From a virus (taxonomy: Duplodnaviria; Caudoviricetes): a stretch of 64,000 nucleotides of DNA. How positions within the stretch are numbered: position 1 is the stretch's first letter; each line of letters opens with the position of its first letter. The stretch covers positions 64,001 to 128,000 of IMG/VR virus record IMGVR_UViG_3300028833_000075. One strand, 5' to 3'. The translations under genes were made by a program, and so were the position numbers. The notes below the pieces were generated by a model. It was not told the origin of the DNA. It did not search any database and saw nothing but the letters and a program-made list of their open reading frames with translations. Below, piece after piece: positions 1 through 32,462 of this stretch.

Positions 1-3000
1 TAGTAAGACCCTCCTGAAGAATAATGCTTTCCGAGAGAGCTGCTTGCTTTCGCTTTTGCTTCATTAGGGGAGCTGGCTTTAATAACGTAGTTTGTACGGA
101 ATCCTCTGTCGTCATAAACTTCGTAATATTTACTCTGATCTGTTGACGTGTTCGAAGAACTACCGCCGCCTCCTCCGCCACCTCCGGCGTTAATGATAAT
201 CTGAGGTATTTTATATTCTTCATTTTTTGCAAGTTGTTTCTGGTAAGAATCATACAAAGAAGCATAGCTTCCGGTAACAGAACTGTACTGATCGTTTGGA
301 TCGTAGTTAACAGCATCCGGATCGATCGATTTATCTCTGAAATACATATAATCCAGACTGCTGGAATACATACCGAGAGAATAAGATCTGTCCGCAATCC
401 TGACATCATAAGTATAATCTTTCAACTGGTCAATCGCGTCAACGACTTCGTGATTGTGATCAAAGGAAGCGTTATCAATGGTTGACTTAGTGTAATTGTC
501 ATACATCTCGCTCCATTGATTTTCAAGCAGCCACCGGTCTGTTTCGGAACCATTGAGATATTGCTGACTTTGCTTCATATATTCAAGGAATGTATCCTTG
601 GAAGCCATCGTCACATCAATTTCTTCCCAATATGTATCGGTAAGACCTTTCATCTTCTTCCACGTATCTTCCCAGCCTTGCTCCATTTGAAGTCTTGTTT
701 CATCTGTGGCATTCTTGTAGTTCTCATCGTGCTCACGCATATAGTTTACGTAATCTTCGAACGAACCGTTCATAATCACATCCATTTCATCTTTGAAATT
801 ACGTGCGTCTTCAAGCATCTCTCCGAGGTTTTCTTCGTAGATTGCCGTATAGTCGCTATATGCGTTAATCTGATCGTCGATCGCCTGCGTTGCCATTTCG
901 GCTTCCTTTGTTGCAATGTCCCAAGACAGTTCTTTCTGAAGATCGGTAATCTGTTTACGCAGTTCCTTTGCTTCTTTAGTCCTGGTTGGGTCAGCAGAAA
1001 TTAAGCCAAGCTGGCGCTGAAGTTCTGCAAGACGTTCGTATTTTTCTTCTTGATCTGCGGCGTTCTTTCTTGCGTTGAGCCGTTCGTTAATCAGGTTCTT
1101 TTCTTCGTTAAGCGCTTGTTTCTTTCTTTCAATATCTTTCTTAATCAGATTCCATTCGTCTGTGTATCTTTTTCTGATCTGAGCAAGTATAGAATCTTGA
1201 ATATTAACAGTTCCTGCGAGCATTTCACGTTGTAAACGAATCCGGTCTTTAATTTCTTTATCGACGGTCTGTTCAAGAGTCTGTTGAATTTTATGAATTT
1301 GTTCAACATTCTTCTTAATAGACTCTGTGTTTTTATCAATTGTTTGATTCGTGGATTCCAGCTGCTCTTCCATCTTCATAATCTCGGAAGTGATCTTCTT
1401 GTAGTTTTCGCTTCCGGGCTTAGTGACCTCTTGTTGTTCTTTCAGTAAAGCAATCTGTTCACGAATAAGATCGGCCCGCTTTTCCTGCTCTTCATTTTCT
1501 CTTGTCAGCATTGTATTCTGATTCGTCAGTTCGCCGTTGTTTTGGTAACGGGTTTCCTCGAACTGAATCATCTTAATATTATGCTGAGCAACCTCATCTC
1601 TTTCGTTAAATCTTTCTATAATATGTTCCAGCTGATCCTGTTCAAGCTGCCGGACAAGATTCTCGTATGCTCCTTCCGTGGAGTTAATGGTTTCTCTGAG
1701 TTCGAAGATCTGCTTGTTTAAATCTTTCCATTGAGTTCCGCCTTCTTCGAGAGCGCCGCCGTTCAGTAGTTCCTCCATATCGGCAAGTTTTCTCCGGGAG
1801 AGATCCAGACTTTCGTTTGTCAGATTCATTTCTTCACGGATCATATTTTGATAGTTAGCAAAATCGTTATCGTTGTCATATCTTTCGGCGGTTGTTTTCG
1901 CCATATTAATCTGATGTGCAATAGCGTCTTCTGCCTGAGCGTAGCTGTTCACGAGCTCTGTAATATAGGACTCCTGAATAGCTTCGTTGTTCTCTTGAAC
2001 GGAAGACGTAGCTGTTGCAATAGCTTCTTCGTATTCAAAGACAGCGTCTCTTGCGTTATACCACGCCTGAGAGCCTTCTTCCAGTGTAGCCATCTGAGCC
2101 TGCAGCTCTGCAATTGCCGTCTGATACATGGCAACGTTCAGCTGATAGTAATCATTATTCTGAGCTAAAGTACTACGATATGCTCCGAACTGTTCATTCC
2201 TCTGATACATGCCACCCCAGGTAGACAACATGTTTTGTTCATGTGTTACTGGAGCCATAGCATTCTGAAGATCCGTAGCGATCTGAGAAACAATTGCTTC
2301 ATTTAAAGCGTGGGTATCTTCAAGAACTTTGTTTTCAAGTTCTGCATTTTGTTCTTTAATCTCCCAGATCTTATCGCGGACGTTCATCCAGTTCTGAGAA
2401 CCTTCTTCATATTCCTTGATAAGATCTTCCCATTCTGCCATCTGAGCATTATTCATTGCAATATCGGTACGATAGTTGGCAATCTGTTGCCTTGTTACAA
2501 CAGCGTAACTCTCAAACTGGCCGCGATCCATGTAGTTCTGAGCTTTTAACTGAAGCATAGATGTCGCATGAGAAAGCGGTTTATCCTCGTATCCTTGTTT
2601 TGTTTCTGTAATATTAATCTTTTTACCGTTGATTTCATCAATAGTATCGGTAATGCCTGCCATTGCTTCGCGGGTAGAATCAATTGATTCCTGAAGCTTA
2701 TACCAGTCTTCCGAACCTTCCTTAACGGTTTCTTTCATCTTTTCCATCTCAGCCATATTAGCTTCGTATTGACTATATAATGCTTGCTGAGCATTCATTT
2801 CATCGTTTAAAGAATTAATATAGCTTTGATAATCATTCATGCGCTCATAATGCGTTTCCGCTTTTTGAGACATGTTCACGAAATGCTCACGGCGTTTAAC
2901 GTAATGTTGCTGACCTTCAAGGAGCGCATCGACTTTGGACTTGCCGCCGCCTCCGCCTCCTCCGCCTTTATAGCCGCCTCCGGCAGAACGGATATTACTG

Positions 3001-6000
3001 CTTGCAATGCGAACACTATTTCCGTTTCCGAAAGCTCCGAACGTAACAGAACCTTCCGTTCCGGCTAACGAAGCAATAATTGCATTAATAACACGTTTAG
3101 CTTCACCTGTTGCTTCTGCGGCAACAGCTTCAAGCTGACCGATGTCATACGTTCCGTTAATATTGAAGTGAGGGCCGAAGTCTTCAATCGGAATGTCCCC
3201 GACTTCGCTTTCGATACTTTCGATAACGGCATTTACATCATTGATAATCGCCTGTTGGTCAGCTTCGAATTCCAAATCAAGTTGAGCTTTCGCTTTAAGC
3301 GGATTAGCTTTAACCTGTTCTTCGGTCCAGCCAAGGTATTCAGCAAGGCTCTTATTACTTACTTTGCTTGTACCATAGTTTTCTTTGAAATATGTAGCTT
3401 TAGCGAATGCATCTCTGTTTGCAGCCATCTGCTTTTGCGCTTCAAGCTGATCTTTTGTAGATCCTCTGAGCTGTTTGAAGCGGCTGATTACCTCATCTGT
3501 TTCTTTTTTATACGGACGGAATGCTTTATTTTTTAGTTCGATAAGTCCATCTTTGAAATCTTTATCCGCTAAAATAGCATTTTCAACTGAACCGTAATAT
3601 GTTTCAACGGCTTCAGCTGCTTTATTAAACAGATCTCCGGGTTCAAGATTAGCTAAATCTTCCATTTTAAGGCCGTACTCTTCCAGAGCCATAGATGCAG
3701 CGAGCCACATATCTGCACCTTCGATACCTTGAGTATAATCTTTGTATGCACCAATAGTATCGTCTTTATAAAATCCTCTTAAATTCCTGTCTTGACTATT
3801 AAGTATTTCATCGAGCTTCTCATAACGGTCGTAATCAGTAAGACCAATGCCGCCGTTTTCAAGATTCTGCATAATAATTTTAGCATATTCTTTATCTTGA
3901 TCTGTCAACTCAGACGCCCAATCAAAAACACCTGGATTTTGAGGTACGACACCTTCGTGCTGTAGTGCATATTGATTTTGTTCTGCAAAAGTTAATCGTT
4001 GAAATGCGTTATATTCTTCTAATTGTTCGTCGTATCTTACTCTGGCGTTTCGAACGGCTTGGGCTAATTGTTGGTTCCCGGTAACCTGGCTAAGAGCTTC
4101 AAAGCCTTTTTCTTCGATTCCTTCTCCTTTAAGATATTCTTGCGCTCTATCGTATGATTCTCCTGTTGTAAGAACTTCCTGTATCTTTTTATATGCTTCA
4201 GAAGCATTTGCAACGGATTCTGCAAGAATTCTAAATTGAGCATCTAACTGTTCTCCTGATGCAGTAACACCAGAAAAATCAAGCTTTCCGTTTTCACCAA
4301 TAGCTACACCAAGGTCTTCAAACACTTTGCGAACATCATCTGACGACTCAAGCAAATTCTTCCAGTCATCAGCGTTTCCTTGTCCAAGAACATCCATAAG
4401 CTTTCGAACATTATCAACCTTTTGCCCATCAAGTTGAGCAAACAGATTATTAGCTGCAATACCAGCCTTATTGTTTTGCTCATATCTCACGTTAGCGTAA
4501 TTTAACGCTCCGGCAAAAGATGTTGCTCCAAGCTTAGCTCTATTAAGCCGTTCTTGTTCTTCTGCGTCTATCTCTGCTTGTCTGGCTTCTGCTTCAGCAA
4601 GGGTTTTGTATTCTGCTGCGGAAGCTCTGACTGCTGCATCTGTTGAATTTAATCTGTTTTGATATTCTTTTCCGTAGAACCCAAGAGATTCATATGCAGC
4701 GTTGTAGAGTTCTTTGTCGAAGTTAGCTCCACCTTCAAGAACAGAAGCGTCTCCTCTGATTAATTTTCTGGCATAAGATGCTTTTTGTAAATCAGTATAG
4801 CCAAGTTTTTGTCCTGTAGCAGGATTAATCCAGTCTTGATCTGGGACGCCGATGTCTGTCCATTGGCGTAAATTTAATCCGAAGCCAAGGTTTCTCGCAA
4901 TCTTTTGGATACGATTTCTATCACTCCAATTAGCATTAGTGTATTGAGTCCATAATTGTTCGCCAAGAGCTTTTCTTTGCTGATCGGCCATATTCTCGGC
5001 AAGTTCCATATTGGCTTCGTAGTTGGAATAGAATTGCGTTGAATCCATTCCGAGGATAGACATTGCGGCTTCGTCTTTCTCCGCTTGTGTAGATCCGTTT
5101 TTAAACTGAGAGTATTGTTGCTTAGTGGCAAAAGCATTGTTTTGAATATTAAGTATTTCGTCGAGAGCGATCTTTCCGCCTTTACGAAGCTTCTCAACTG
5201 AAGCGGCTGTGCCTGCCAGTAAATCTCCTGTTTCTTCGAGAGCCTTAAGTCCTTCAACTTCGATAGAGATTTCAAGATTGTTCTTATAATTATTAAACTG
5301 CTGCAATAAAGTCGAAAGCAGCTCTTCTTGGTCTGATGTAAGAGGTTCTTCTGAAGTTAATAAAGCGAGAAGTTCAGGAGCTCCGGAAAATCCTTCAAGA
5401 TATTTTTTTGCAGATTCTTTTGAATATCCAACTAATTTGTTATCTTGAATGTATCCGCTAAGTTCTTTTATACCGGCTAACTTATCACGATTTGTTAATC
5501 CATTAATACCGTTGCCGTAATTTGTAATTAATCGATTAATTAGCGATTCGTCTCCGTTTTCATATCTTCCAATTTTATCTAACAATTCATTTCCGATAAT
5601 TGGTTGAAGTGCAGTTCTTTCTTCTTGCGTTAATACAGGTCTATCAGTTTTTTCAACAGCTTCATTATATTGACTCTGAATTTTATCACGTTGTTCAGTA
5701 GCCTCTGTTTGTTTTGTCTCTGCAACATTTCTGGTGCGTAAAATTCCTTCATTGTCTTTGTAAACCTCAGTCTTGTCTGCAGGTATGTTTTGAGCTTGAC
5801 GAACGGCTTCTTCGGCGTCTTCAAGTTCTTTCTTTAATTGATTAACACCTGCGGCTTCATATGCCTTTTCCTTTTCAGCTTCAGAATGATACGCGCCTTG
5901 ATTTAATTTTGTTAAAGCTGATCTTGCAATATTAGCTTGCGTTTTTTGTTCAACGTATCCGGTATTATTATATAATCCGGATCTATTAAGAACTCTTCTT

Positions 6001-9000
6001 AATTGCGCTATACCATCAGGAGCGTTAAAAGTTCCTGTTTCTTCATCGTATGTACCTACAATTGAATTAAAAACTTCCTGAAAATCAGGATTGTTCATAG
6101 CTAAAGATTGCAAAGCCGTATATGCTTCACTGTTTGTGTTGGCAAAATTCATAAAATCAGTAATATTATCATAATTATCAAGTTGAGATATAATGAAATC
6201 AGCGCTAACAGCAGCTTCATTTTTCTCTTCCCATCCTTTTGGCTGAGAATAAAATTGATTTAATCCTAAGATTCTATTGGGTACAAGCTCATAATCATTT
6301 TTTATTTTTTCTGCTTCTTGGTTAATCTCATCTGCTGCGTCTTTAATGATCTTACCTCCGGCATCAATATAATTTGAAATTGCTAACGTAAGATCTTCAG
6401 GGGCTGCATTTTGAATTTTTTCAAAATTCGGATCGTTCACATCAAATATTTCACTATAATCTACACCTCGAGAAAGATAATCATTAATGACGTCGGTTGC
6501 CATTTTGTTATATCTGCTTTTGTATTCAGCTTGAGCTTGCTCGGGTGTGATACGTTCACCGTTTTTATTATAGTATGATCCACGAGACACCTGATCTAAC
6601 CTGGCTAAACCTTGAGTTTCTGCGCCCTCTAAGTAATCGTTTTCAACTTGCGCCACAAATGAATCGTAATTAAACCCATCAGCTAAACCATAGTGACGAA
6701 CCACGAATTCATCAAGCGTTTCATTTTCTCCTCGTAAAGAGTCTAAATACGATCCAGACATTTTTATTTTATTTGTAACTTCTTCGGGTAAGAGACCTTC
6801 GGTAGATGCTGCAATAATATCACCAATAATAGAACCAGTATCTGCAACATAATGTGCCTCTCCGGGTAAATCACCTTGTTGCGTCGAAAGCCAAGTACCA
6901 TATGCTTGTGATAAAACTCCCAGGTTATATAAAGATATGCTGTTAAGTAATTCCTCATCTTTTGGATCGGACACACCCAAATAGTGGCTTCTGTCATTAT
7001 CAAAATCAATATAATTTCGGTAATAAGTACGAATACCACTTAAAGCATTTTCCATTTCCTCTGTAAATTGTCCGGCATCTTTATATGTTGTTTCAAGATA
7101 ATCTAAAAATCCATCTTCCCAAGTAGTATTTCCATAATAAGAGAACATTTCTCCTAAGTTTATTACTTTATCTCTTTTTGAGCCTTCTCCATTAAAGACA
7201 TCAAGAAAAGTACTTTTAACTTCACCGTTTTCAATGCGGAAATAATTTTGCAATTCTGGAGTTATCTCTTCGTTTCCGTTTTCATTGGTTTCATATAAAA
7301 CAAGAGTGCGTGCAGATTTCTCTGTTTTAGTCGTAAGCTCATCGTTTAACGTTCCGCTTACAAGGTTATCTTTTATGGCTTTCGCTTTTATCTCTTTTTC
7401 TTTTTGCTCTTCTCTGTCTTTAAGATCTTGATAATATTTATCGAGATTATCAGATGAGGTTGTCGATATTTCGCCTAAAAGAGCAATACTGCTTGAAAGA
7501 TCTTTTAATCCGCCGCTGGAATCAGAAATAGATTGTTGAAGCTCATCACTTATTCCGACGTCGACCGCGAAAGATTTTAGGATCTTTCTATATTCATTTA
7601 TCTCATCCTCAGTTTTTGAATTACCCTTTTCGTACAAGACTTTAGCTCTGTCTAAACTGCTTTGTTTGCTGTTTTTACTAAATTCTTTGGCTGTATCTTC
7701 GGTTACTTTTGCATATGTTTTCTTTTCAGATGCAAAAGAAGATGAAGATGAAGGAGATTGAACATTTTGTAAATAAGCTCCTGCTGCAGCTCCAGTCGCA
7801 GCGCCGACAAGAGCGCCAACCCATCCGAATTGTGCACCTTTAATCGCGCCAATTAATCCTAGAATAACCGGGGCTAATAGTTTCATCTGAGACAACCATC
7901 CGACAATCTGACCAAGTCCAGTGATTATATTCGCAATACTTTCAGCAAGAACTTCAAATTGGCCGGTGTCGACCATTTTGTTGACCATTTCATCCCAAGC
8001 TGTACGAACTGTATCGATAGACGCCTGAAGACTATGCATCCGAATTTCATTCTTTTCATCAACAATACCTTCGGATTTTCCAGACAGTTGCATATACTCG
8101 TCGACTTTTCCTTCAGACATTCCCATCATAATCGCTGAGAAGTTTGAATACTGACGAGTGCCTGCAATTGCATTTGCAATTTGTTGCTGCTCGGCATCTG
8201 TCATGCCTTCCCATTTTTGAGACAATGCGTACAATGTGTCGTATGTGGATTTTTTATTACCTTGCTGATCATACATTTCGATGCCTTGTTGCTTAAGTAA
8301 TTTAGCAACAGCAGAGCCCGAAACAGCATTACCATTTTCGTCATAAATAAGTTCGTTTGTACCGATCTTATTCATGCGACCGATAATAGTATTTAATGTA
8401 CGACCTGCAGTATTACCGCCGATCTGGGTTGTAGAAGTAATAGCAGTAAGCATTGAAGCAAGTTCTGCAAAAGTGGTTCCATCTGCAGCCGCTGCAGCAC
8501 CAGCCTTTTCGATACCTTTTTCAATTTCTGATGCATTGGTAGCAGCGCTATCGCCTAAAGAAGTAACAATATCTGCTGCTTGACTTGGATCGGTTACCAA
8601 TCCGGTATTCATAGCAACAGTAATCAATTTAGTTGCGGCGTTTACATCAGTGCCGGAAACTTTAGAGAACTTGGTAATAACATCCAGTCGTTCATCAACT
8701 TCTTCGTCGCTTAAGCCTTGACGATAAAGAGTTTCGGCAGATTTTGTTATCTCGCCAATAGAAACTTTTAACTCTTTTGCTTTTGCGATTAATCCGTCTC
8801 CCAATGTTGACATTTGCGAATCAGATTTTAAGGTAATCATCTGAATCGATGTCATAGACTTGTCGAATTCTTGAACAAAGCGTTTTGCTTCATTAATCGC
8901 TTTCATAAAAATCTGGCGACCAAGTCTTTGCATGACGCGAGATAATCCAGTATTAATTTTACTGAGTCCCGCAGACATAATAGACGATGCGCCGCCAAAC

Positions 9001-12000
9001 TTATTCATCTCGTTAGTTGTATCTTGTATTGCGCTTTTATAACCTGCGATCTTTGTTTCAGATTCTTTAATCTGTCCAGCTAATTGTGCTCCTTCTTTAC
9101 TTTTTTGCTGTTCAGGTGAGAGTTTATTAAAATCTTCACGATAGCGCTGAAGTTTTTCTTCTTCCGCTGTTTTATTTAGATTAAGGGACGCTATCTGCTG
9201 TCCGAGACTAAACCTTTGATCTGCATCGCTTCTAAGTTTGTTGATCAACATAGAGCCGGGTTGACCATATCTATTTCTCCGCCTAACGGCAGCAGCATGT
9301 TCTCTTTGCTGATGAGCAAGATCGTTTTGCGTTTCCATGCGACCAATTTGTTGGTTTTGTATATCAATCGCTCGATTTTGATTAAACATCATGTTTTCGG
9401 CGATTTCATCTTTTCTTCCTGCCCAATCACCATTATAGTATCCATTTAATCTATCATACATATCCTGCATGAATGGCTGTTCAAACGTTCCATCTGGCTG
9501 TTTATATTGCTCTAAAGCCTTCATTTGATTGAATACTTCGAGCCGTTCCTGATCTGCTTGAAGCTGAGCGCCGATTTGCATACGTGCAGTAGGTGTTTCT
9601 ATTTTTGTGAGAGCTTGTTCAATTTCAGATTTTCCAATCTCGGAAACACTTTCTTGCACAGCAGATGAAATAGGTTGAGCATCTGGAGTCTCAGCGGAAG
9701 CTGGAATTTCTGTTCTTACTTGGTCTGCGGTTGCCTGAATAGCCTGTCTTGTACCTTCTGTGATAGCTTCCCCGATTTTTCCTGCATTAGTTGATTGAGG
9801 AACTGGTATTTGTACAGGAGGAATATTCTCTGCAGCCGCAAGACTTGCATCTCTCTCTTTACTTGCAGCAGCCATTCCTTGTTCGTATGTGCTTAATATA
9901 TTTGAACGTTCTGTAGCAAGAGTCTCTTGCTGTTTAGTTAAATCTGCAACTCTTTGTTCTGCGTCTTGAATCTTTTGAGCTCTGTCTCCAGATTGGGATT
10001 TATATGCATCTTCTAATTTTCTTTCAGCAGCAGCTTTTTGGACTTCAATCGCTTCGCGCTGCTCTTGGTTTTTAGCAAGGACCGCGTCTCTGTCCTTTTC
10101 TACATCGTTTATTTCCTTGTTGATTGCGGCTGTTTGTTCTTTTGCAATTATTTCTTTGTTTTCTTTTATCTGAGTATTATATTTATTATTTGCTTCATCG
10201 TTTGCTTTATCTCGATCTTTTTCTGCTTTCTGTAGAGATTCTTTAATCCTTGTTTCTTCTTCTTCTGTAGATTTTATGTTTGTGTCATGTATTTTGCGGA
10301 TGTTTTCTTTTTGCCTTTCAAAATTTTCCGTTCTGTCTGGACTTGAATATTCAGATTTTATTGTTCGTTCCTTTTCGTACAAAGAACTTTCTCTTTTTTC
10401 GTATCTCTCTTTTTCTTCTTCATATGCCTTAGTTTTTAATTCGTTTTCAGTTTCTATTCTTTGTCTGTATTTTTCATCTGCATATGCTATATCCTTACCG
10501 TGATCTCTATTTGCGGCTTCTATTCTCCTTTGTTTTTCATATTTATCGTAACCTGTATAATCATCATTTTCTATTCTAGCAAGTTTTTCTTCGAGAGATA
10601 AATCGGCAGCAGTATAAGCTTTTTCTCTTCGTTCTTTATATGTTTCTAACGCATTATTATAATTATCTTCGATTTGTTTCTCGTTTTCTATATTTTTTCT
10701 ATCATTATCTTTCCGTTGAGCTTCAATGTCAGCTAAAGCATCATTTAATCCCTTTGTTTCTTCGCTTTCTATCATTGATAAAGCTTGTTGTTTCGACGAT
10801 TCTTCTTGAGCTTTATAATTATTTATTTCAGTTAATCTATCTTTTAATGGTTTAATTGTTTCTTCGTATTTTGCATTGTTTTCTGCAATAGATTTATCTC
10901 TTATCGCTTCAGCTTTTTTATTGGCTTGTTCAAGCTCTGGGCTAGTTTCTGCCTTTTCTTTTTCTTTAATCCCGTTGAGTTTCTTTTGTGCATTTTCTTT
11001 AATTTCTTGATCAGATTGTTGTAAAGCTTTGAGTTGATCATCAAATGTTGTCGGCAACGTCCCTTTTTCAGCAGCAGGTAAAGCTCTAAGCTCATCTAAA
11101 CTTTTCTGCGCAGCGGCAAGATTCGTTGCAACTTCAGCCTCTTTTGGAGTAAGCTCACTAAGCTGGGAATCCCTGCTTGCTTGAAGTGCTGCAGCTTTTG
11201 CGTCGTATGAAGTTTGAGCTTTTGCTTTTGCTTCTTGGATAGACACTTGCCTGTCTGCTTCAGCTTTTTCTTGAGCTGCTTTAGCTTCTTCAGCTCTCTT
11301 TTGTTCCGCCTCTAAAGCGGCCTGTCGTTCTGCTTCGGCTTTTTCTTGAGCGATTCTGGCTTCTTCAGCTTTTCTTTGTTCTTCTTCCAGTCTCTGTTGT
11401 TCAGCAAGACGTGCTTGTTCTTCTTCCTGTAAACGTTCTTCTTCTGTTTTCTGCGGAGGAAGTTGTTGAGAGGGAAGGGGAGTAGTAGCAGGAACGCCAA
11501 GAGCTTTAGATGTGCTAAGACGATCGATAAGTGCCTGTGCGTTCATCGCGACTTTAGACCTTGAAACTAAACTTTCTTGTTTTAATTCTGTTCTATAATC
11601 TTCTTCGGTTGCTGAATTAAGCATTTCAGTTAATCGGTTGTAGTCATCTTCTTTTATAATGTCGTTTTGATGCAGATTTTCTAATGAGGTTAAAATCTGT
11701 TCTCTCTGTTGATTGAAGGCGGCAACTCTTAAAGATATTTTTTGATCAATTGGCGCATTTTTTCCCATTGAGGATACGAGAATTTTTTCAACATCCATTT
11801 GCATGGATTTTGTTGCATCTTCAGAAAGTATTTTCTCATAACTTTCTTTCATCTCTTCGCTTGCTTGAAGTTGTTGCTCAGCTTCTTTTAATGCCTTTTC
11901 GTCTTCTGGTGTTTTATTTTCTTTGTTATACAAAAGATTGTATGCAGCTTGCGCACGTTCAAAATCTTCATCAATTGATTTTCGTTCATTTAAAATACGT

Positions 12001-15000
12001 TTAGCACTGCTTGTTGTATTATGTGTATATATTTTCTCAGCAATGCTTTCGGAAAAGTTTGCAAGATCTCCTGTCGCTCCAGCTCGAAGTGTTTTTTCAA
12101 ACTGTTCGCGGCCTGTGTTAAAACTAGTTTGAAATAGTGCAATTTCATCAGGCGAAGCATTACGGTTGCGCATCCTTGTTGTAACATCCATATATCCTTC
12201 AGGAGAATACATATATGCATAATTATCCCACTGAGACCTGCTTGGTCTTGTTTTATCATATCCTAACTCTCTTGAACGAAGTTTGTTTTGTATCGCCTCG
12301 TAACGTTCAATTTGCTCATCAATGTAATTTCTATTGGAAAATGCGCTTGTTAATTCTCCGGTATTTTGTACTCCTACATTAACCCCGTTCGGTATTGGTG
12401 CACCGGCTGCAGTAGCGGCCTGTGTGATAAACTCCGAAGACAACGGGCCACCAGAAGGCATTTGACGAACAGATCCACGGACAACATTTGGAAGTAAATA
12501 AGGATCGAAATATCCATTAAGAATTTCTCCTAATATGTCTTTTTTCCCAGCCAAAGGTATTATTGCACTGCTAATTTTTGCCATTCGGTCTTCAACCGAT
12601 GAAACGAGTTCTGGTGTTACTTCTATTGATTGAGTTTCCAATTTTCCGCCTTTATAAGAAATAATTCCAGCTCTTTGTGCGCCATTGGCACCTGCATAAA
12701 CAACAGGCTGATCAAATTTGTGGACGCCGATCAACGAAGAGTCGTGATCGAATCCATTCTTTAAGTCCCAGTTCGTTCGAACACCATTTGCATCTTCCGA
12801 AACAACATCGACATAGCCAATGGTTTTTAATCGATTTCCGTTTTGGTCCGTTCCAAAATTTGGATGCACAACTCCGCCATTCTTTTCCGTTCCTACAATC
12901 TTTTGGTCTCTAAGTAAATTCGGGAATTGCTTTGCCGCTTCAACAATTTCTTTATACCGTGTTTTTACTTTTTCGTCATACAAAGGACTATCTTCTGTTG
13001 GAAGTTCAGGGAATAATTTCTGACGAGTATCTGGATCCTGCCAATTCTTCAGATAATTATTTACATAATCGACCATTTCTTCAGGAGTTCCATAATCCTC
13101 ATTATTCTCCATTCTTCTTTTTGCCCAATATGATTGAGTTTCATGAAGAGCTGTACCGAGTAATTGAATAGGTGTTGTAGGTTTTTGCTCGTTTTCTATA
13201 TATTTTTTATACCAATTAAGCGGACCTGCTGTTTCTTTTTCTATAGAATGAAGCTGCGACCATGAAAAATTCCTGCTAAGTAAATTTTGAATTTGTTCCG
13301 ATGTGACTGCTTTTTCAGCGCTTGCTTTTTGTGCAGCCAACAAAGCTTCATCTCCGCCTGAAATAGCGTTCATTCTTGCTTTAATTGCATCTTGTTCTGC
13401 ATTAAAACTTTGATCAAATAAGCTTGTTTCTCCTGTAACTCTACCTTTAGCTAAGCCAGAAAACGGAATAAATCCTTCTCCTCTTAATTTTGCTTGTTCT
13501 GTTAATCCAAATTCTTTTAAATGACGCATCCGTCCGCGTTGAAATTGCACATCATGTAATTGATCCATCCAAGAATTTATTTTATCTTTATTTCCGGGTT
13601 CTGTTATTTTTGTTTTTTGAAGTTCCGTATTAACAAGCGTTTCCCAATTTGCCAGATAACCAAGCATTTCATCTTCGTCTTTTTGAGACACAAACTGAGC
13701 GCGGTTTGATACAAATTGAGCCATTACTTCATTGTTTTTTCTTAAATATTTTGCTTTGGCTAAATCTACAGGGTTTTCAGAGTTTTCTAAATTTTTTATT
13801 CCTTGTAAGTGTTCTTGCATTTGGATGAATTGATTAATAATATTATCGCTATAAGGATTATCCATACCTGCAGCAATAGCACTTGTCGTTAAATTCGAAT
13901 ATCTTGATGGGAAGTTGACTTGAGAAAAATCTTTAACCTTTGAAAAATCTCCTTCTTCTATAGCTCCTTGCAGGTTTTTAAACATACGAACATAAGGAGT
14001 TCCCATTTTTCTGGCTTGATTTGCAGAATGTGACCATTTTGCAAGAATTCCTGTCTTAGCAAAAGTTGTGTCGATATCATACATTGCCCGAAGATCAACG
14101 CCTGCTTGTTGTGCAAAGCGAGCCCACTCCGGATCACTCCAATTTCCCTGGGCTAAAGCATCGTTAGCGTTAGAGACGGCCGCCATATCGAAAACAGAAG
14201 CAGCTTTTCTATATAGAATGTCGGCATAATCAGAAGCTTGTACTTTTCTGGCTTTTCCGTTTTCTGTAAGTGGGATATCGTCGTCACTTTTAACGGACGT
14301 ATTTAGTTTTTCAATATTTTTTCCTCTTGATTCATACGTGCGCTTTACGGTTTCGGCTAACTTTTTTCTAACAGCTTGAATTGTATCTCCGTCAACATCT
14401 CCACCGCCCATCTTTTTTATCGTATTCATGTTGACTATCATTGCATCTCGGCTCATTTGATATTTATCAAGCGCATCAATATACTCTTTTGAATTAAGTA
14501 ATTCAAACTGTTCTCCGAGATTATTAGGATATCTCCATCCGCCAAGTTCAAGTGTATCTGCCCATGAAGCTAAAGCGACTGCATCTGCGTCGCCTTTTCC
14601 TTTCAAACTCAACGCGTTAGCAAGATGTGTATTTTTAGGTCGTAATTTTACTTTTTGCTTGCCCGCAATCGCAGAAATTAATTCAAAAGGATTGTTTAAT
14701 GCTAACGCATTTATAGCGTCGCCTTTTGAATATAAACGTTGATTACGTCTATCGTCCATAGCTTTTAAAATTGCATCATCTACTCGCTTTCTAGCTTCCG
14801 GATCTGAAAAAAACAAACTTTTATCTTTTTGAACTCTTTGAGCGAGCGGATCGTCCGGGTTTGAGAACAACATATCTATTGTTTTGGCCGGATTTGTTCT
14901 AAGTGTTTGGATGTATTCATTCCATTTTTTGTTATTGCTTTCGATTTCTTCCGGCGTCAAATCTAAGTTTTGCGTCACTTGTCTTGAAATAGAATCAGTT

Positions 15001-17312
15001 TTACTTAAAAACCCTTTATCTGTTTCTACTCCATACATTCCGCCAACCATATCCAAAACATCAAAAAATCTATCTTGAATTGCAGAATGTCCTAAGTTTT
15101 TATAAAAAGGAGTTTTATTCATTGAAACATCAATAGCAGCTTGATATTTCAACAAATCAACAAAATCCTCATCAAATGTTTTTAATCCATTGCTTTTATA
15201 AGCGTTTCTTACTGCTTCAATCCCTTTTTTGTTATACAGCTCCTTCATTTCTTTTGGTGCGTTCCATGCAGGAACCATAAATTCATCAATGTCGCCATAT
15301 ACATCTCGAATCATTTTTTGAAAATCCACCTGCATGGCAGAACCTTTAAATCCTGCAGAACGAACGGTCATTGCTTTAGCTGGAAGATAACCCGGCATAA
15401 CCATCATTCCACCGTCAAATCCGGTGATTGAATTAAAATCGACAAATGCGGTATCATTCTTCGCTGGCATTTTGCCGCCCAAAGAACTAAATGGGACAGC
15501 TGGAGTATGTAAACGATTTCTTGCGTCAATTGGTTTATTTAAGTCTTTTACTGTAATAAATTCTTCATCATCACTAACAAGATTCTTAAAAATATCAACG
15601 CCATATTTATCAATAAATTGACTTGCTTTTTCGATATAGGCGGATTCTTCCGCTAAATCTATTATTCCGTTTTTATGAATTCCGGTTGGAACATATGTTC
15701 CATGTTCACCATGATTTATTGTCGGATATGAGAATGTGTTTCCACCTGGCGTTTGAATCGTTTTGCTGTTTTTCTCACTGAACAACTCTGTGACAAAAGC
15801 CATAGTTTCAGCATTTGGTTTTACTCTTCCGTTCTCGAAAACAAGATCGCCGTTTTGATTTTTTTCAAATAAACGATCTGTTAAATCAAGTTGAAGCATT
15901 TTACGTGGACCTGAATCAGAACCAAATGAGTTATGCCCAGACATACCTAATAAATTTGTATATATCGAAGAAGAAATCATTCGGTTAACAGATTTGCCTG
16001 CTGCTCTATCGTTATATGCAAATTCACGTCCTGCTTTATCGTCAAGGATTACGCCATTTTTCAAGTCATCTAATGTTAAAGACATGATTTGGAAATAATC
16101 TGGACGAACAGATACAGGCGAATCTACAGCTACTGAATTATCTATTGACCTGCCATATTTTCTTGGTTTATCAACGTACAAAGGCTGATAAATTGGAATT
16201 TTTTCAAGATCTCTTAATGCGCCATATACTTCTGTTACTGTTCTTGATGTTTTTCCCGCCATTGCAATTTGTTCATGGTCGTCAGAATTCAATAACGAAT
16301 GTCGATGCATCGGTGCCCCTTCTAGAGCAGGCCGAAGAATGTCTCTGTCCAAAAACCCTAACGCTGTCGCATACTCACTTTCTTTTATAGGTGTTTTTGG
16401 CATTATAAGTTGACCAGCTTTATTGTCAATTGTTCCTCTTCGAGCAACGCCAGCCATTAACAGAGCGTTTTCTAATGCAGGATATTTGCCTGCTGCATTT
16501 TTTAAGATATCATAATCTTCTTCAGACATATTTCCAGCATACGCCTTACGTCTCGATCCAACAGAATAAGGAACTGAAGTAGGCACATCTGGAAAATTGC
16601 GATACTTTTCTGGCATTCTTTCTTTATACGTGGAATACTCAGGAAGAATAGAAAGTCTTTTTATTGTTCCTTTTGATTTATCAATTGCCGATTGATAAAA
16701 ATCTTCTCTTGCAAAAGAAGGCGTTACCATATTGATAACACCTTGAAGTAATTCAGATACCTGGTCGTCGGAAAATCCAAATTGTCCTGCAATTGCGTCC
16801 ATACCTTTTTTAAAAGGTGCGTGAGATTTTAGTATTGATTCGTAAGCGCTATTTGTTTGTGGCCCCATAGACCTATAAGTTCTTGTAATAACATCGGAAG
16901 CTGCCCTCGAAATATCTGCAAATTCAGATTCAAACCCTTTTGTCATAGACTTTGGGATTGATGTAAACATTTTCCCAAAGTTACCAGAAGTAGAAAATAA
17001 AGTTTCAACGCTTGAAGATAAAAACGCAATACCCTGCTTTAATCCTGAAATCATATCAGAACTAATCGAACTGCCTAAGCCCAAATCTTTCATTGTTGAA
17101 ACAAGTGCATCCCGCTGCTGTTTTATTGTAGAAAGCATGGAATCAACAAAAGAAGACATCATAGCAGGAGCATCTTCCGGTAAAAACGATTTTTTATCTA
17201 TGTTTGCTAAAGAAAATGATTCATCTAATGATTCAAGTTGTGTTTTACATGAATTTAATTCTCCAGCATCAATTGGATTAAGTTTAGGATTAATTTCAAT
17301 TTCAATTGCCAT
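1..17312 (-). CDS. Giant tape-measure protein (>5,770 aa, 3' end outside window) with N-terminal two-barrel RNA polymerase domain and PD-(D/E)xK nuclease domain
   Basis: ATG at 17312 behind AAGAAAGGA RBS (MAIEIEINPKLNPIDAGEL...). Same frame reads open wherever I translated it (1-60, 8000-9000, 12650-13270, 14340-14580, 15330-15450), and the ORF track lists no stop-terminated ORF in this frame. TP901-type tape-measure core at ~8000-8900 (ETLYRQGL...AADIVTSLGDSAATNASEI...AGRTLNTIIGRM); lies downstream of tail tube and chaperones. Confidence 0.9.
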   Translation of the reverse strand, partial: MAIEIEINPKLNPIDAGELNSCKTQLESLDESFSLANIDKKSFLPEDAPAMMSSFVDSMLSTIKQQRDALVSTMKDLGLGSSISSDMISGLKQGIAFLSSSVETLFSTSGNFGKMFTSIPKSMTKGFESEFADISRAASDVITRTYRSMGPQTNSAYESILKSHAPFKKGMDAIAGQFGFSDDQVSELLQGVINMVTPSFAREDFYQSAIDKSKGTIKRLSILPEYSTYKERMPEKYRNFPDVPTSVPYSVGSRRKAYAGNMSEEDYDILKNAAGKYPALENALLMAGVARRGTIDNKAGQLIMPKTPIKESEYATALGFLDRDILRPALEGAPMHRHSLLNSDDHEQIAMAGKTSRTVTEVYGALRDLEKIPIYQPLYVDKPRKYGRSIDNSVAVDSPVSVRPDYFQIMSLTLDDLKNGVILDDKAGREFAYNDRAAGKSVNRMISSSIYTNLLGMSGHNSFGSDSGPRKMLQLDLTDRLFEKNQNGDLVFENGRVKPNAETMAFVTELFSEKNSKTIQTPGGNTFSYPTINHGEHGTYVPTGIHKNGIIDLAEESAYIEKASQFIDKYGVDIFKNLVSDDEEFITVKDLNKPIDARNRLHTPAVPFSSLGGKMPAKNDTAFVDFNSITGFDGGMMVMPGYLPAKAMTVRSAGFKGSAMQVDFQKMIRDVYGDIDEFMVPAWNAPKEMKELYNKKGIEAVRNAYKSNGLKTFDEDFVDLLKYQAAIDVSMNKTPFYKNLGHSAIQDRFFDVLDMVGGMYGVETDKGFLSKTDSISRQVTQNLDLTPEEIESNNKKWNEYIQTLRTNPAKTIDMLFSNPDDPLAQRVQKDKSLFFSDPEARKRVDDAILKAMDDRRNQRLYSKGDAINALALNNPFELISAIAGKQKVKLRPKNTHLANALSLKGKGDADAVALASWADTLELGGWRYPNNLGEQFELLNSKEYIDALDKYQMSRDAMIVNMNTIKKMGGGDVDGDTIQAVRKKLAETVKRTYESRGKNIEKLNTSVKSDDDIPLTENGKARKVQASDYADILYRKAASVFDMAAVSNANDALAQGNWSDPEWARFAQQAGVDLRAMYDIDTTFAKTGILAKWSHSANQARKMGTPYVRMFKNLQGAIEEGDFSKVKDFSQVNFPSRYSNLTTSAIAAGMDNPYSDNIINQFIQMQEHLQGIKNLENSENPVDLAKAKYLRKNNEVMAQFVSNRAQFVSQKDEDEMLGYLANWETLVNTELQKTKITEPGNKDKINSWMDQLHDVQFQRGRMRHLKEFGLTEQAKLRGEGFIPFSGLAKGRVTGETSLFDQSFNAEQDAIKARMNAISGGDEALLAAQKASAEKAVTSEQIQNLLSRNFSWSQLHSIEKETAGPLNWYKKYIENEQKPTTPIQLLGTALHETQSYWAKRRMENNEDYGTPEEMVDYVNNYLKNWQDPDTRQKLFPELPTEDSPLYDEKVKTRYKEIVEAAKQFPNLLRDQKIVGTEKNGGVVHPNFGTDQNGNRLKTIGYVDVVSEDANGVRTNWDLKNGFDHDSSLIGVHKFDQPVVYAGANGAQRAGIISYKGGKLETQSIEVTPELVSSVEDRMAKISSAIIPLAGKKDILGEILNGYFDPYLLPNVVRGSVRQMPSGGPLSSEFITQAATAAGAPIPNGVNVGVQNTGELTSAFSNRNYIDEQIERYEAIQNKLRSRELGYDKTRPSRSQWDNYAYMYSPEGYMDVTTRMRNRNASPDEIALFQTSFNTGREQFEKTLRAGATGDLANFSESIAEKIYTHNTTSSAKRILNERKSIDEDFERAQAAYNLLYNKENKTPEDEKALKEAEQQLQASEEMKESYEKILSEDATKSMQMDVEKILVSSMGKNAPIDQKISLRVAAFNQQREQILTSLENLHQNDIIKEDDYNRLTEMLNSATEEDYRTELKQESLVSRSKVAMNAQALIDRLSTSKALGVPATTPLPSQQLPPQKTEEERLQEEEQARLAEQQRLEEEQRKAEEARIAQEKAEAERQAALEAEQKRAEEAKAAQEKAEADRQVSIQEAKAKAQTSYDAKAAALQASRDSQLSELTPKEAEVATNLAAAQKSLDELRALPAAEKGTLPTTFDDQLKALQQSDQEIKENAQKKLNGIKEKEKAETSPELEQANKKAEAIRDKSIAENNAKYEETIKPLKDRLTEINNYKAQEESSKQQALSMIESEETKGLNDALADIEAQRKDNDRKNIENEKQIEDNYNNALETYKERREKAYTAADLSLEEKLARIENDDYTGYDKYEKQRRIEAANRDHGKDIAYADEKYRQRIETENELKTKAYEEEKERYEKRESSLYEKERTIKSEYSSPDRTENFERQKENIRKIHDTNIKSTEEEETRIKESLQKAEKDRDKANDEANNKYNTQIKENKEIIAKEQTAAINKEINDVEKDRDAVLAKNQEQREAIEVQKAAAERKLEDAYKSQSGDRAQKIQDAEQRVADLTKQQETLATERSNILSTYEQGMAAASKERDASLAAAENIPPVQIPVPQSTNAGKIGEAITEGTRQAIQATADQVRTEIPASAETPDAQPISSAVQESVSEIGKSEIEQALTKIETPTARMQIGAQLQADQERLEVFNQMKALEQYKQPDGTFEQPFMQDMYDRLNGYYNGDWAGRKDEIAENMMFNQNRAIDIQNQQIGRMETQNDLAHQQREHAAAVRRRNRYGQPGSMLINKLRSDADQRFSLGQQIASLNLNKTAEEEKLQRYREDFNKLSPEQQKSKEGAQLAGQIKESETKIAGYKSAIQDTTNEMNKFGGASSIMSAGLSKINTGLSRVMQRLGRQIFMKAINEAKRFVQEFDKSMTSIQMITLKSDSQMSTLGDGLIAKAKELKVSIGEITKSAETLYRQGLSDEEVDERLDVITKFSKVSGTDVNAATKLITVAMNTGLVTDPSQAADIVTSLGDSAATNASEIEKGIEKAGAAAAADGTTFAELASMLTAITSTTQIGGNTAGRTLNTIIGRMNKIGTNELIYDENGNAVSGSAVAKLLKQQGIEMYDQQGNKKSTYDTLYALSQKWEGMTDAEQQQIANAIAGTRQYSNFSAIMMGMSEGKVDEYMQLSGKSEGIVDEKNEIRMHSLQASIDTVRTAWDEMVNKMVDTGQFEVLAESIANIITGLGQIVGWLSQMKLLAPVILGLIGAIKGAQFGWVGALVGAATGAAAGAYLQNVQSPSSSSSFASEKKTYAKVTEDTAKEFSKNSKQSSLDRAKVLYEKGNSKTEDEINEYRKILKSFAVDVGISDELQQSISDSSGGLKDLSSSIALLGEISTTSSDNLDKYYQDLKDREEQKEKEIKAKAIKDNLVSGTLNDELTTKTEKSARTLVLYETNENGNEEITPELQNYFRIENGEVKSTFLDVFNGEGSKRDKVINLGEMFSYYGNTTWEDGFLDYLETTYKDAGQFTEEMENALSGIRTYYRNYIDFDNDRSHYLGVSDPKDEELLNSISLYNLGVLSQAYGTWLSTQQGDLPGEAHYVADTGSIIGDIIAASTEGLLPEEVTNKIKMSGSYLDSLRGENETLDEFVVRHYGLADGFNYDSFVAQVENDYLEGAETQGLARLDQVSRGSYYNKNGERITPEQAQAEYKSRYNKMATDVINDYLSRGVDYSEIFDVNDPNFEKIQNAAPEDLTLAISNYIDAGGKIIKDAADEINQEAEKIKNDYELVPNRILGLNQFYSQPKGWEEKNEAAVSADFIISQLDNYDNITDFMNFANTNSEAYTALQSLAMNNPDFQEVFNSIVGTYDEETGTFNAPDGIAQLRRVLNRSGLYNNTGYVEQKTQANIARSALTKLNQGAYHSEAEKEKAYEAAGVNQLKKELEDAEEAVRQAQNIPADKTEVYKDNEGILRTRNVAETKQTEATEQRDKIQSQYNEAVEKTDRPVLTQEERTALQPIIGNELLDKIGRYENGDESLINRLITNYGNGINGLTNRDKLAGIKELSGYIQDNKLVGYSKESAKKYLEGFSGAPELLALLTSEEPLTSDQEELLSTLLQQFNNYKNNLEISIEVEGLKALEETGDLLAGTAASVEKLRKGGKIALDEILNIQNNAFATKQQYSQFKNGSTQAEKDEAAMSILGMDSTQFYSNYEANMELAENMADQQRKALGEQLWTQYTNANWSDRNRIQKIARNLGFGLNLRQWTDIGVPDQDWINPATGQKLGYTDLQKASYARKLIRGDASVLEGGANFDKELYNAAYESLGFYGKEYQNRLNSTDAAVRASAAEYKTLAEAEARQAEIDAEEQERLNRAKLGATSFAGALNYANVRYEQNNKAGIAANNLFAQLDGQKVDNVRKLMDVLGQGNADDWKNLLESSDDVRKVFEDLGVAIGENGKLDFSGVTASGEQLDAQFRILAESVANASEAYKKIQEVLTTGESYDRAQEYLKGEGIEEKGFEALSQVTGNQQLAQAVRNARVRYDEQLEEYNAFQRLTFAEQNQYALQHEGVVPQNPGVFDWASELTDQDKEYAKIIMQNLENGGIGLTDYDRYEKLDEILNSQDRNLRGFYKDDTIGAYKDYTQGIEGADMWLAASMALEEYGLKMEDLANLEPGDLFNKAAEAVETYYGSVENAILADKDFKDGLIELKNKAFRPYKKETDEVISRFKQLRGSTKDQLEAQKQMAANRDAFAKATYFKENYGTSKVSNKSLAEYLGWTEEQVKANPLKAKAQLDLEFEADQQAIINDVNAVIESIESEVGDIPIEDFGPHFNINGTYDIGQLEAVAAEATGEAKRVINAIIASLAGTEGSVTFGAFGNGNSVRIASSNIRSAGGGYKGGGGGGGGKSKVDALLEGQQHYVKRREHFVNMSQKAETHYERMNDYQSYINSLNDEMNAQQALYSQYEANMAEMEKMKETVKEGSEDWYKLQESIDSTREAMAGITDTIDEINGKKINITETKQGYEDKPLSHATSMLQLKAQNYMDRGQFESYAVVTRQQIANYRTDIAMNNAQMAEWEDLIKEYEEGSQNWMNVRDKIWEIKEQNAELENKVLEDTHALNEAIVSQIATDLQNAMAPVTHEQNMLSTWGGMYQRNEQFGAYRSTLAQNNDYYQLNVAMYQTAIAELQAQMATLEEGSQAWYNARDAVFEYEEAIATATSSVQENNEAIQESYITELVNSYAQAEDAIAHQINMAKTTAERYDNDNDFANYQNMIREEMNLTNESLDLSRRKLADMEELLNGGALEEGGTQWKDLNKQIFELRETINSTEGAYENLVRQLEQDQLEHIIERFNERDEVAQHNIKMIQFEETRYQNNGELTNQNTMLTRENEEQEKRADLIREQIALLKEQQEVTKPGSENYKKITSEIMKMEEQLESTNQTIDKNTESIKKNVEQIHKIQQTLEQTVDKEIKDRIRLQREMLAGTVNIQDSILAQIRKRYTDEWNLIKKDIERKKQALNEEKNLINERLNARKNAADQEEKYERLAELQRQLGLISADPTRTKEAKELRKQITDLQKELSWDIATKEAEMATQAIDDQINAYSDYTAIYEENLGEMLEDARNFKDEMDVIMNGSFEDYVNYMREHDENYKNATDETRLQMEQGWEDTWKKMKGLTDTYWEEIDVTMASKDTFLEYMKQSQQYLNGSETDRWLLENQWSEMYDNYTKSTIDNASFDHNHEVVDAIDQLKDYTYDVRIADRSYSLGMYSSSLDYMYFRDKSIDPDAVNYDPNDQYSSVTGSYASLYDSYQKQLAKNEEYKIPQIIINAGGGGGGGGSSSNTSTDQSKYYEVYDDRGFRTNYVIKASSPNEAKAKASSSLGKHYSSGGSY

Positions 17313-17392
17313 AAATTTACACATCCTTTCTTATATATTTGACATTTGCTTATATTATTGGTAACATGTATAAAAAACAGGAGGTTAACATT

Positions 17393-20294: not shown

Positions 20295-20978
20295 TTATGA
20301 ACAAACTTTCTCATAATGATAACCTTTGTATTTTTTATTGAAACGAATTGCTCTTGAAAGATTAGAGATTAGCACACCAAGATAATCAGCACATTCCGTC
20401 ATAGAATTAAATTCTTGACCTGTTTCAACTATACGGATATGAATTTTCGATGCTTCTCTTGCGTTTTTATAATCTTCTTCAGTAAATGCGTGTACAGGAG
20501 GATGCTTTATAGAGTATTCACGCATACGTTTGCACATAGCGTCATATCTATCTTTCGGCATTTTCCTTCCTCTTTGGGATTCACTTATTTTACGTTTTGA
20601 TTCTTCTGAATGGTGTTTGCCTGTCATTCCGTTAGGTTTACCTTTTAATGCATCGCTAATTCTTTTTCTAATTTCAGGTGGATATTCCTGATGTTCTCCA
20701 CCTTCTTTTATGTTGTATCCATATTTATCATTGTTTGTCTGATATTCTTTTATGTATCTTCTTTCAAGTTCCATTGCTTCCTTTTCTGTTTCACATGTCG
20801 TAATGATTTCGTGAATGAAATCATTCCATCCATATTTTTTAATTGCGTGCCAGAAATGTACACAATTTCTATATCCACTTCCGTCGCCATTAAATCTTTT
20901 TGTCCATGGGTCTTGACATGTGATTCCAATATATTTCTTTCCAGTTGTTTTACTGGTATGCATATAAACAGTATACAA
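20295..20978 (-). CDS. Intron-encoded GIY-YIG homing endonuclease (NUMOD3/NUMOD1-type DNA-binding modules)
   Basis: VYMH...KKYIGIT...RF...GYNI; HHSEESKRKISES. Confidence 0.9.
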   Translation of the reverse strand: MYTVYMHTSKTTGKKYIGITCQDPWTKRFNGDGSGYRNCVHFWHAIKKYGWNDFIHEIITTCETEKEAMELERRYIKEYQTNNDKYGYNIKEGGEHQEYPPEIRKRISDALKGKPNGMTGKHHSEESKRKISESQRGRKMPKDRYDAMCKRMREYSIKHPPVHAFTEEDYKNAREASKIHIRIVETGQEFNSMTECADYLGVLISNLSRAIRFNKKYKGYHYEKVCS

Positions 20979-26964: not shown

Positions 26965-26980
26965 GTCCGTTCACCTCCGA

Positions 26981-27397: not shown

Positions 27398-27428
27398 AGT
27401 AAATCATTTCCTTTCGATAGATTTCTGC

Positions 27429-28832: not shown

Positions 28833-28988
28833 TTGTCAATGCTGGGAGTCAAGGCCAATTGAAGCGAATCTATATCAACACTGTAAAGTGTAGATATCGT
28901 CGGCTGTCAGTTAACGCAAGATAAAAGCGCGCCTCTTGCAAAAACTGTTTAACGATATTTTACGAGCTCGTTTACGGCCAAGTGCTCG

Positions 28989-29064: not shown

Positions 29065-29206
29065 AAGGAAACACCGGGGCCGAAGCCCCGGCTTTCGATA
29101 TCCGTACTTTGAGTGACGGCAACTCAGGTTTTCAGATAAACCTTTTAACATAAAAAAGATATGGATTTGTTTATAACGGGCGTTCCATACTTTACGTCCG
29201 TATATG

Positions 29207-32458: not shown

Positions 32459-32462
32459 ACGA

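Follow-up and report, generated by a model that had tools for sequence, protein, structure and literature searches.

The 64-kb stretch of DNA studied here (bases 64001-128000 of the IMG/VR virus record IMGVR_UViG_3300028833_000075, which is 150,578 bp long and rated 100% complete; hereafter the window) encodes most of a giant tail tape measure protein of a tailed phage, within which very probably lies an intact two-barrel RNA polymerase domain. The polymerase sits in the protein's N-terminal part and is followed by a predicted nuclease. By analogy with gp96 of the Thermus phage P23-45, we consider it probable that both enzymes are cargo of the tape measure, delivered at infection, and that the polymerase carries out pre-early transcription. 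Positions are given in window coordinates, or, where prefixed G000, on the whole record. Residues are numbered from the ATG at 17324 (P0001 numbering).

A single reading frame joins the polymerase motifs and the tape-measure core

On the minus strand, positions 3..17324 form one frame of 5,774 codons without a stop, which leaves the window at its left edge. On the whole record the tape measure gene spans G000:63634-81324 (minus strand) and its product has 5,896 residues if counted from the ATG at 17324 and 5,892 from the likely start, the ATG at 17312, which has an AGGA 11 nt upstream. A preliminary description of this DNA, whose residue numbers are lower than ours by four, had reported an open reading frame (ORF) of more than 5,770 codons from the same start. 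The frame is uninterrupted over 17.7 kb, and neither a stop nor a frameshift separates the polymerase motifs from the tape-measure core; the interval between 14000 and 9000 was inspected by translation for such an interruption and none was found in frame. The core, placed at about 8000-8900 by the preliminary description, was recovered in the same ORF as a match to the Pfam family PF10145 (Table 1).

Signatures of both polymerase barrels are conserved

Two signatures, DG...R...KG and R.P...DxDGD, mark the two double-psi beta-barrels (DPBBs) of QDE-1/YonO-type polymerases, and the preliminary description had recognized both. Translation located GFDGG at 15422-15408, RSAGFKGS at 15362-15339, GGWRYPN at 14543-14523 and DVDGD at 14399-14385, exactly where they had been read before; DVDGD corresponds to residues 976-980 (972 in the earlier count). 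Both signatures are essentially invariant in an alignment with 19 relatives, which are 25-76% identical across the N-terminal 1,720 residues. G638, R655, K660 and G661 of the first barrel are invariant, and D637 is replaced by asparagine in two relatives; in the second barrel R931, P933, G973, G975, D976, D978, G979 and D980 are likewise invariant. R655 and K660 are, by their motif position, the predicted pair of conserved basic residues of the beta-like barrel, to which a catalytic role is assigned. By our estimate the D.DGD pattern alone would turn up by chance in 5,774 residues with a probability of about 1 in 15; the observation goes beyond chance because the motifs are invariant in the 19 relatives and the fold matches as well (see below).

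The sole PHROG match of the module is phrog_8308, the YonO family (E 1.6e-5, residues 633-1014). A control search with phrog_8308 picked out Bacillus subtilis, that is, YonO of SPbeta. The genome encodes three paralogous polymerases, namely the fused one and two free ones (nv1 and nv2), and four related genomes likewise each hold the fusion and two free paralogues. Profile-profile comparison with hhalign gave probabilities of 94.6% for the fused polymerase against the nv1 family (E 7e-8, 506 columns, spanning both barrels), 100% for nv1 against nv2 (E 7e-40) and 6% for the fused polymerase against the YonO-like nv2 (E 0.006). The comparison of the fused family with residues 327-1124 of gp96 reached 2.7% (E 0.017) and was confined to the DxDGD loop, where the DVDGD stretch of the fused polymerase aligns with DFDGD of gp96 and DVDGD of nv1.

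The predicted structure is that of a single-chain two-barrel polymerase

An AlphaFold2 model of residues 400-1330, built with the alignment of the relatives, reached a predicted local distance difference test score (pLDDT) of 86.4 and a predicted template modelling score (pTM) of 0.80. In structural comparisons with VIA-align, the top 18 matches are all single-chain two-barrel polymerases, with Z scores from 17.4 to 11.8, after which the scores drop to about 8.5. Maize RDR2 ranks highest (Z 17.4, 510 aligned residues, root-mean-square deviation 3.7), followed by QDE-1 (Z 16.4-16.9, 513-529 residues), P74-26 gp62 (Z 16.3, 407 residues), P23-45 gp64 (Z 15.7, 418 residues) and P23-45 gp96 (Z 11.8, 345-350 residues). 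Single barrels of multisubunit polymerases align over 134-201 residues with Z of about 8.5 and below. The best matches cover model residues 8-757, equivalent to protein residues 407-1156 and window positions 13857-16106, a near-exact fit to the interval 13900-16100 named in the preliminary description.

Foldseek searches of the PDB gave a similar list, with RDR2 (E 4e-10) and QDE-1 (E 7e-9), P74-26 gp62 and P23-45 gp64 (E 6e-4 to 9e-4), P23-45 gp96 (E 4e-3) and phi14:2 gp66 (E 0.025). In a viral structure library, the top matches of the module were P23-45 gp64 and phage proteins whose annotation reads 'RNA-dependent RNA polymerase' (E 7.6e-16 and 1.5e-11). Behind the beta'-like barrel, where a bridge helix and a trigger loop would be expected, the structural alignments continue along the long helices of model residues 589-757. 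The helical extension that follows is hardly covered by structural matches, and its final ~30 residues are modelled with low confidence. The double-psi-barrel fold anticipated for residues ~400-1200 was thus borne out by a confident model with two-barrel polymerases as its top matches, and the model identifies the module as a predicted single-chain two-barrel RNA polymerase of the QDE-1/YonO clade.

The polymerase is preceded by a conserved N-terminal region with eight invariant positions in the 19 relatives (P238, L288, G292, G323, P332, E335, G336 and P381). No Pfam or PHROG match was found for residues 5-406, and an Atlas feature search with residues 5-405 was uninformative.

A predicted nuclease follows the polymerase

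The region behind the helical extension is predicted to be a PD-(D/E)XK nuclease. PF12705 is matched by 12 of the 19 relatives (best E 2.4e-11), the window protein itself lying under the threshold. D1506 and K1522 are invariant in all 19 relatives, and position 1520 is D or E. Foldseek matched an AlphaFold2 model of pLDDT 89.4 to ACE1 of the Cas4 family at E 1.7e-6 and to AdnA and AddB, in their nuclease domains, at E 3e-5 to 7e-4. The domain shares the fold and the D...(D/E)xK catalytic residues with RecB/Cas4-family nucleases and differs from them in sitting within a tape measure. Translation of residues 1335-1640 contains no cysteine, so the four-cysteine Fe-S cluster of Cas4 and AddB is absent and the domain is RecB-like rather than a strict Cas4.

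The rest of the protein is a canonical tape measure

In addition to PF10145, eleven PHROG tape-measure families match residues ~2650-3900 (best E 1.2e-27). The charged spacer between the nuclease and this core showed only weak matches, all to coiled-coil families of Pfam and PHROG. Behind the core lies the sole 19-residue span with a Kyte-Doolittle hydropathy above 1.6, which forms the single hydrophobic segment. The C-terminal ~2,700 residues contain no M23 peptidase and no other enzymatic Pfam domain. The PF10145 score, the hydrophobic segment and the position of the gene after the head and tail-tube genes identify the giant protein as the tail tape measure protein.

Table 1 Features of the tape measure gene, its protein and the surrounding genome. 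Coordinates refer to the window unless prefixed G000 (whole record).
Feature	Coordinates	Strand	Basis or remark
Tape measure gene, in-window part	3..17312	-	5,770 of 5,892 codons; remaining 122 codons left of the window
N-terminal conserved region, aa 5-406	16107..17312	-	conserved in 19 relatives
Predicted two-barrel (DPBB) single-chain RNA polymerase core, aa 407-1156	13857..16106	-	AlphaFold2 model, fold matches, phrog_8308
First barrel (beta-like DPBB), signature GFDGG...RSAGFKGS	15339..15422	-	invariant residues in 19 relatives
Second barrel (beta'-like DPBB), signature GGWRYPN...GGGDVDGD, metal-binding triad	14385..14543	-	invariant residues
Helical extension behind polymerase core, aa 1157-1334	13323..13856	-	long helices in model
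Predicted PD-(D/E)XK nuclease, RecB/Cas4 type, aa 1335-1615	12480..13322	-	PF12705 in relatives, conserved residues, AlphaFold2 model
Charged spacer, aa ~1800-2650	9375..11927	-	low aromatic content; E+K+Q+R+A 50-58% per 200 aa
Tape-measure core, PF10145 PhageMin_Tail, aa 2850-3055	8160..8777	-	E 1.2e-25, 91 bits (cut-off 33.2)
Single hydrophobic, glycine-zipper-like segment, aa ~3140-3167	7824..7907	-	hydropathy; weak Gly-zipper match
C-terminal ruler part	3..7823	-	mostly helical composition, two poly-Gly tracts
Two paralogous GIY-YIG homing endonuclease genes	20295-20978, 21743-22459	-	phrog_314, E 1e-38 to 1e-39; among tail genes
Capsid-like genes	25960-28832	-	upstream of tape measure, same strand; small tail genes besides
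Portal	29207-30793	-	upstream of tape measure, same strand
Terminase large subunit	30812-32458	-	upstream of tape measure, same strand
Free polymerase paralogue nv1, 1,110 aa	35592-38924	+	phrog_8308, E 1.1e-24
YonO-like paralogue nv2	G000:133914-135653 + 136321-137355	+	interrupted gene, outside the window

The fusion defines a family of giant proteins and has an unfused counterpart

A database search limited to giant proteins returned 22 relatives of 3,602-5,923 aa, all with PF10145 and the same architecture; identity over residues 380-1300 is 30-82%. Among 1.84 billion representative proteins, an exhaustive search found just 50 clusters, and all the full-length ones are giant. The lineage comprises ~50 representative clusters, has no cultured member, and its genomes, so far as they are complete, measure 107-150 kb. 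None of the 50,697 GenBank phage records searched by tblastn matched the module, nv1 or the free 937-aa homologue described below. No relative was found when 185,579 prokaryote species, each represented by a single genome, were scanned with the module, which leaves neither a prophage nor a clue to the host.

One product of the exhaustive search is a free-standing homologue of 937 aa (P0054), with DG...R...KG at residue 262 and DFDGD at 599. Its gene lies 93 nt upstream of a gene for a 1,204-aa PF10145 tape measure on a 110-kb ENA contig (the pair at L030:8001-14522), which also holds the SPbeta-like genes YonB and YomU_Tube. This short tape measure is 37% identical to the core of the window protein over 417 aa (E 7e-72). 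Adjacent polymerase and tape-measure genes in a related phage, arranged in the order that the fusion has, are what would be expected of a precursor, or of a fission product, of the fusion, and the free polymerase may itself be a virion polymerase. The unfused neighbours, together with the absence of gp96 homology in both the polymerase and the ruler, favour an origin of this fusion independent of that in the Thermus phages; a very deep common ancestry of the two fusions is possible.

Free paralogues and genomic context

The genes upstream of the tape measure (Table 1) form a normal siphovirus-type morphogenesis module with the tape measure last. In relatives, genes of SPbeta type (YonB and YomU_Tube) occupy the same place. 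A Pfam search of the window's own head and tail ORFs yielded no YonB or YomU match, so the link to SPbeta rests on the relatives and on phrog_8308. A lone tRNA gene, Asn(gtt), lies at 28989-29064 (minus strand) between the portal and the capsid-like genes, and a reverse-transcriptase-like ORF was found at 60018-61166 (plus strand; phrog_2825, E 1.8e-38; phrog_1423 'Reverse transcriptase', E 2.3e-15).

The free paralogue nv1 scores 23.0 bits against Pfam RdRP, for which the cut-off is 23.8, and carries RFP at residue 608 and DVDGD at 650. The preliminary description had credited this stand-alone ORF with the same motifs as the fused polymerase at similar spacing. RFP and DVDGD, their spacing, DG and KG are present, but the arginine of R..KG is missing. 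The nv2 gene is split exactly within the catalytic motif (..LQFD / VDGDQ..) by ~700 nt holding a 152-aa HNH_3 endonuclease ORF, whereas its counterpart in relatives is unbroken. An Rfam search of this gap recognized no group I intron.

A GC-rich island surrounds nv1, with 47-52% GC in window 26000-46000 against 36-41% elsewhere. The closest homologue of nv1 (38% identity) is found on an unrelated contig, whereas identity to the paralogues in closer relatives is only 16-19%; these findings suggest that the nv1 island is a horizontally exchanged module. Seven elements, each consisting of a hairpin, a T-run and ATTTTTACG, occur only at 34398-42940, all on the plus strand, and flank nv1 and the small genes near it, inside the island of ~50% GC against ~38%. 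Each begins with a covarying or variable 8-12-bp hairpin, followed by T7-9, A, T4-6 and (A/C)AC(G/T); the T-runs start at 34419, 34808, 35120, 35379, 38961, 39466 and 42925. The strict pattern was found 6 times forward and 0 times reverse in the genome, and 0 times in the control. Two further copies (L010:932 and L010:1495) lie upstream of the closest nv1 homologue on the other contig.

These elements were considered as promoters of the fused polymerase, by analogy with the AT-rich pre-early promoters of P23-45. We set this aside as the main interpretation, since the elements are missing from four relatives with the same fused polymerase and present beside the nv1 homologue elsewhere. Their absence from those relatives implies that the elements travel with the nv1 island, of which they may be terminators with a conserved extension, promoters, or both; they are candidate signals for a phage polymerase. 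Genome-wide counts of exact 12-mers and counts of intergenic 9-mers disclosed no dispersed promoter-like motif, and sigma-70-like sites around nv1 are not enriched (16 against 16.3 expected).

The island holds other features as well. A tRNA cluster at 44973-45969 (plus strand) comprises Ile(tat), Ala(tgc), Pro(tgg) and Leu(taa). A twister-P5 ribozyme (RF02684) was identified at 40210-40279 (plus strand) with 48.3 bits against a gathering score of 37.6; it sits in an ORF-poor stretch of ~50% GC downstream of nv1, in the same GC-rich island as the four tRNAs. In the divergent intergenic region between the packaging and structural genes and the nv1 island, a perfect 13-bp tandem repeat, GATGAGTTGATGA, is present in 4.7 copies (34021-34081); it may serve as packaging site or origin, or mark a genome end. 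The record has a terminal repeat of 127 bp, which was considered as its physical ends and rejected; the repeat probably marks a circular assembly only, 127 bp being a k-mer length in common use by assemblers.

Comparison with known polymerases and tape measures

The fusion of a polymerase to a tape measure is already known as a concept from P23-45 gp96, which Chaban et al. 2024 demonstrated experimentally to be a tape-measure-fused virion RNA polymerase (PMC10770324). In that work gp96 was detected in virions and, 5 min into infection, on the phage DNA, where it occupied a 9-kb pre-early region including the gene for the non-virion polymerase gp64; its structure is clamp-less and 'flat', which is thought to be an adaptation to passage through the tail; both gp96 and gp64 are DNA-dependent transcriptases; and the fusion was reported only in P23-45, P74-26, G20c and TSP4 (PMC10770324). 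Our literature search retrieved no report of a polymerase-tape measure fusion beyond the P23-45 group.

The window protein resembles gp96 (PDB 8H2M/8H2N) in several respects. Both are giant tape measures (5,892 aa here, 5,002 aa in gp96) encoded at the end of the head-tail module, both carry a two-barrel polymerase of related fold with DxDGD in the N-terminal ~1,100-1,200 residues, and in both genomes there is a separate non-virion paralogue. They differ in sequence, with no homology outside the DxDGD loop and none found by BLASTP of the ruler part, and the enzyme here is structurally nearer to QDE-1, RDR2 and gp62/gp64 than to gp96. The protein here has an extra PD-(D/E)XK nuclease, a domain not mentioned for gp96 in PMC10770324, and lacks an M23 peptidase; its genome encodes two free paralogues instead of one. 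Furthermore, the genome is ~40% GC, 150 kb long and from an uncultured phage, whose host is probably mesophilic. The protein would thus work like gp96 and yet belong to a different sequence family, within the YonO/QDE-1 clade.

YonO of the Bacillus prophage SPbeta, a single-chain two-barrel enzyme and a DNA-dependent transcriptase according to Forrest et al. 2017 as cited in PMC10770324, represents the only PHROG family matched by the module. Both nv1 and nv2 are clear members of this family; the fused module is only distantly related, and YonO is a free, non-virion enzyme. QDE-1 and RDR2 (PDB 2J7N and 7W82) are the best structural matches, at Z 16.7-17.4 with 510-529 residues aligned over both barrels and the following helices, but this resemblance is one of fold only because they share 9-12% identity with the module and are cellular eukaryotic RNA-silencing enzymes acting on RNA or single-stranded DNA templates, with no virion or tail context. 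N4-like phages, as well as crAss-like phage phi14:2 (gp66, PDB 6VR4), share the functional idea of a virion-carried polymerase injected for early genes. In phi14:2 gp66 the two-barrel enzyme is likewise embedded in a very large protein, but this protein is not a tape measure and matches the module weakly; the N4 virion polymerase is kept in the capsid and is a single-subunit enzyme of T7 type.

Proposed delivery through the tail and alternative explanations

By analogy with P23-45 gp96, we infer delivery at infection and pre-early transcription for the fused polymerase. The N-terminal ~1,640 residues would be enzymatic cargo, with the polymerase (~407-1156) ahead of the nuclease (~1335-1615), and the ~900-residue charged spacer would link this cargo to the canonical core, the one membrane-type segment and the ~2,700-residue ruler. 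The protein would fill or line the tail lumen and be expelled at infection with the C-terminus first, and its hydrophobic segment may help to form a conduit. The polymerase would then enter just ahead of, or together with, the leading DNA end and transcribe the first (pre-early) genes without the host polymerase, while nv1 and nv2 may take over later gene classes. The nuclease would be co-delivered and might act on nucleic acid of the host, whether DNA or RNA, or on the end of the incoming DNA.

Several observations weigh against such a role. Homology to gp96 ends at the DxDGD loop, which makes the analogy one of function and not of orthology. The fused domain has no Pfam RdRP (PF05183) match at E<=0.1, and no polymerase turned up when all PDB sequences (including 8H2M) were searched by HMMER with the module, the free paralogue or the family profile, so that the kinship to these polymerases is visible by fold comparison only. 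Some 185 kDa of enzymes per chain would have to be stored in a tail and travel through it, the main physical difficulty of the scheme. Moreover, the polymerase seems not to be reduced like gp96. It shares ~510 aligned residues with the clamp-bearing QDE-1 and RDR2 against ~350 with the clamp-less gp96, which hints at extra elements relative to the latter. The absence of the hairpin elements from the relatives leaves no promoter tied to the module. Finally, the phage is known from metagenomes only, and virion delivery and activity are deduced from the analogy.

The alternative that fares best, which we nevertheless regard as unlikely, holds that the module is active and virion-borne with another main job, such as a motor for DNA internalisation, the making of replication primers, or work on an RNA template like QDE-1; in such roles it and the neighbouring nuclease could act jointly on the DNA end as it enters. 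The nearest solved structures, QDE-1 and RDR2, are RNA/DNA-templated enzymes, a RecB-like end-processing nuclease is fused alongside in all 19 relatives, and for transcription two further polymerases are already encoded in the genome. However, the characterised phage members of the clade (YonO, and gp96 and gp64 of P23-45) are DNA-dependent transcriptases, and several paralogues are just what a temporal transcription cascade predicts.

It is less likely still that the N-terminal enzymes are not delivered at all, being cleaved off during tail assembly or used in the producing cell, with the fusion serving late co-expression. Tape measures are known to be processed in several phages, a folded module of ~185 kDa would be hard to fit in the tail lumen, and the polymerase is a separate gene in one relative. 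Against this, a polymerase made late and left unpackaged has no obvious role, the fusion is kept in all 22 family members, and the fused module of P23-45 is found in virions and, 5 min post infection, on phage DNA (PMC10770324).

That the module is a catalytically dead relic, now a structural or spacer part of the ruler, is very improbable; the lack of a Pfam RdRP match would agree with it, but the metal-binding triad, R-x-P and the basic pair are invariant among relatives at 25-30% identity, the pattern expected under selection for catalysis. The notion that assembly or gene calling has joined separate genes, raised by the metagenomic origin of the genome and by the one relative with separate genes, can practically be dismissed, given 17.7 kb without a stop and the same uninterrupted architecture on independent contigs from many samples.

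Probable as delivery of the fused polymerase and nuclease for pre-early transcription is, a fuller scheme can be put forward only tentatively and may well not hold in all its parts. It combines a two-enzyme 'infection starter' with a cascade of three polymerases (fused, nv1 and nv2) independent of the host RNA polymerase, and derives the fusion independently from adjacent genes in an SPbeta-like ancestor.

Implications for long-tailed phages

If this fuller scheme is right, long-tailed phages would have arrived convergently, and more than once, at delivering polymerases by way of the tail ruler. P23-45 has been presented as a singular case within one genus of thermophilic phages. The present family adds a second lineage with no detectable sequence relationship to it, and fusion to the ruler would then be a more general answer to the question of who transcribes the first gene. 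The unfused neighbours in a relative provide a concrete route to such fusions, and the nuclease, for which gp96 has no described counterpart, suggests a capacity of tape measures to carry several enzymes. The module at residues ~400-1330, with its confident model and a size suited to expression, could offer a second case for learning how a polymerase with two barrels withstands transit through a tail.

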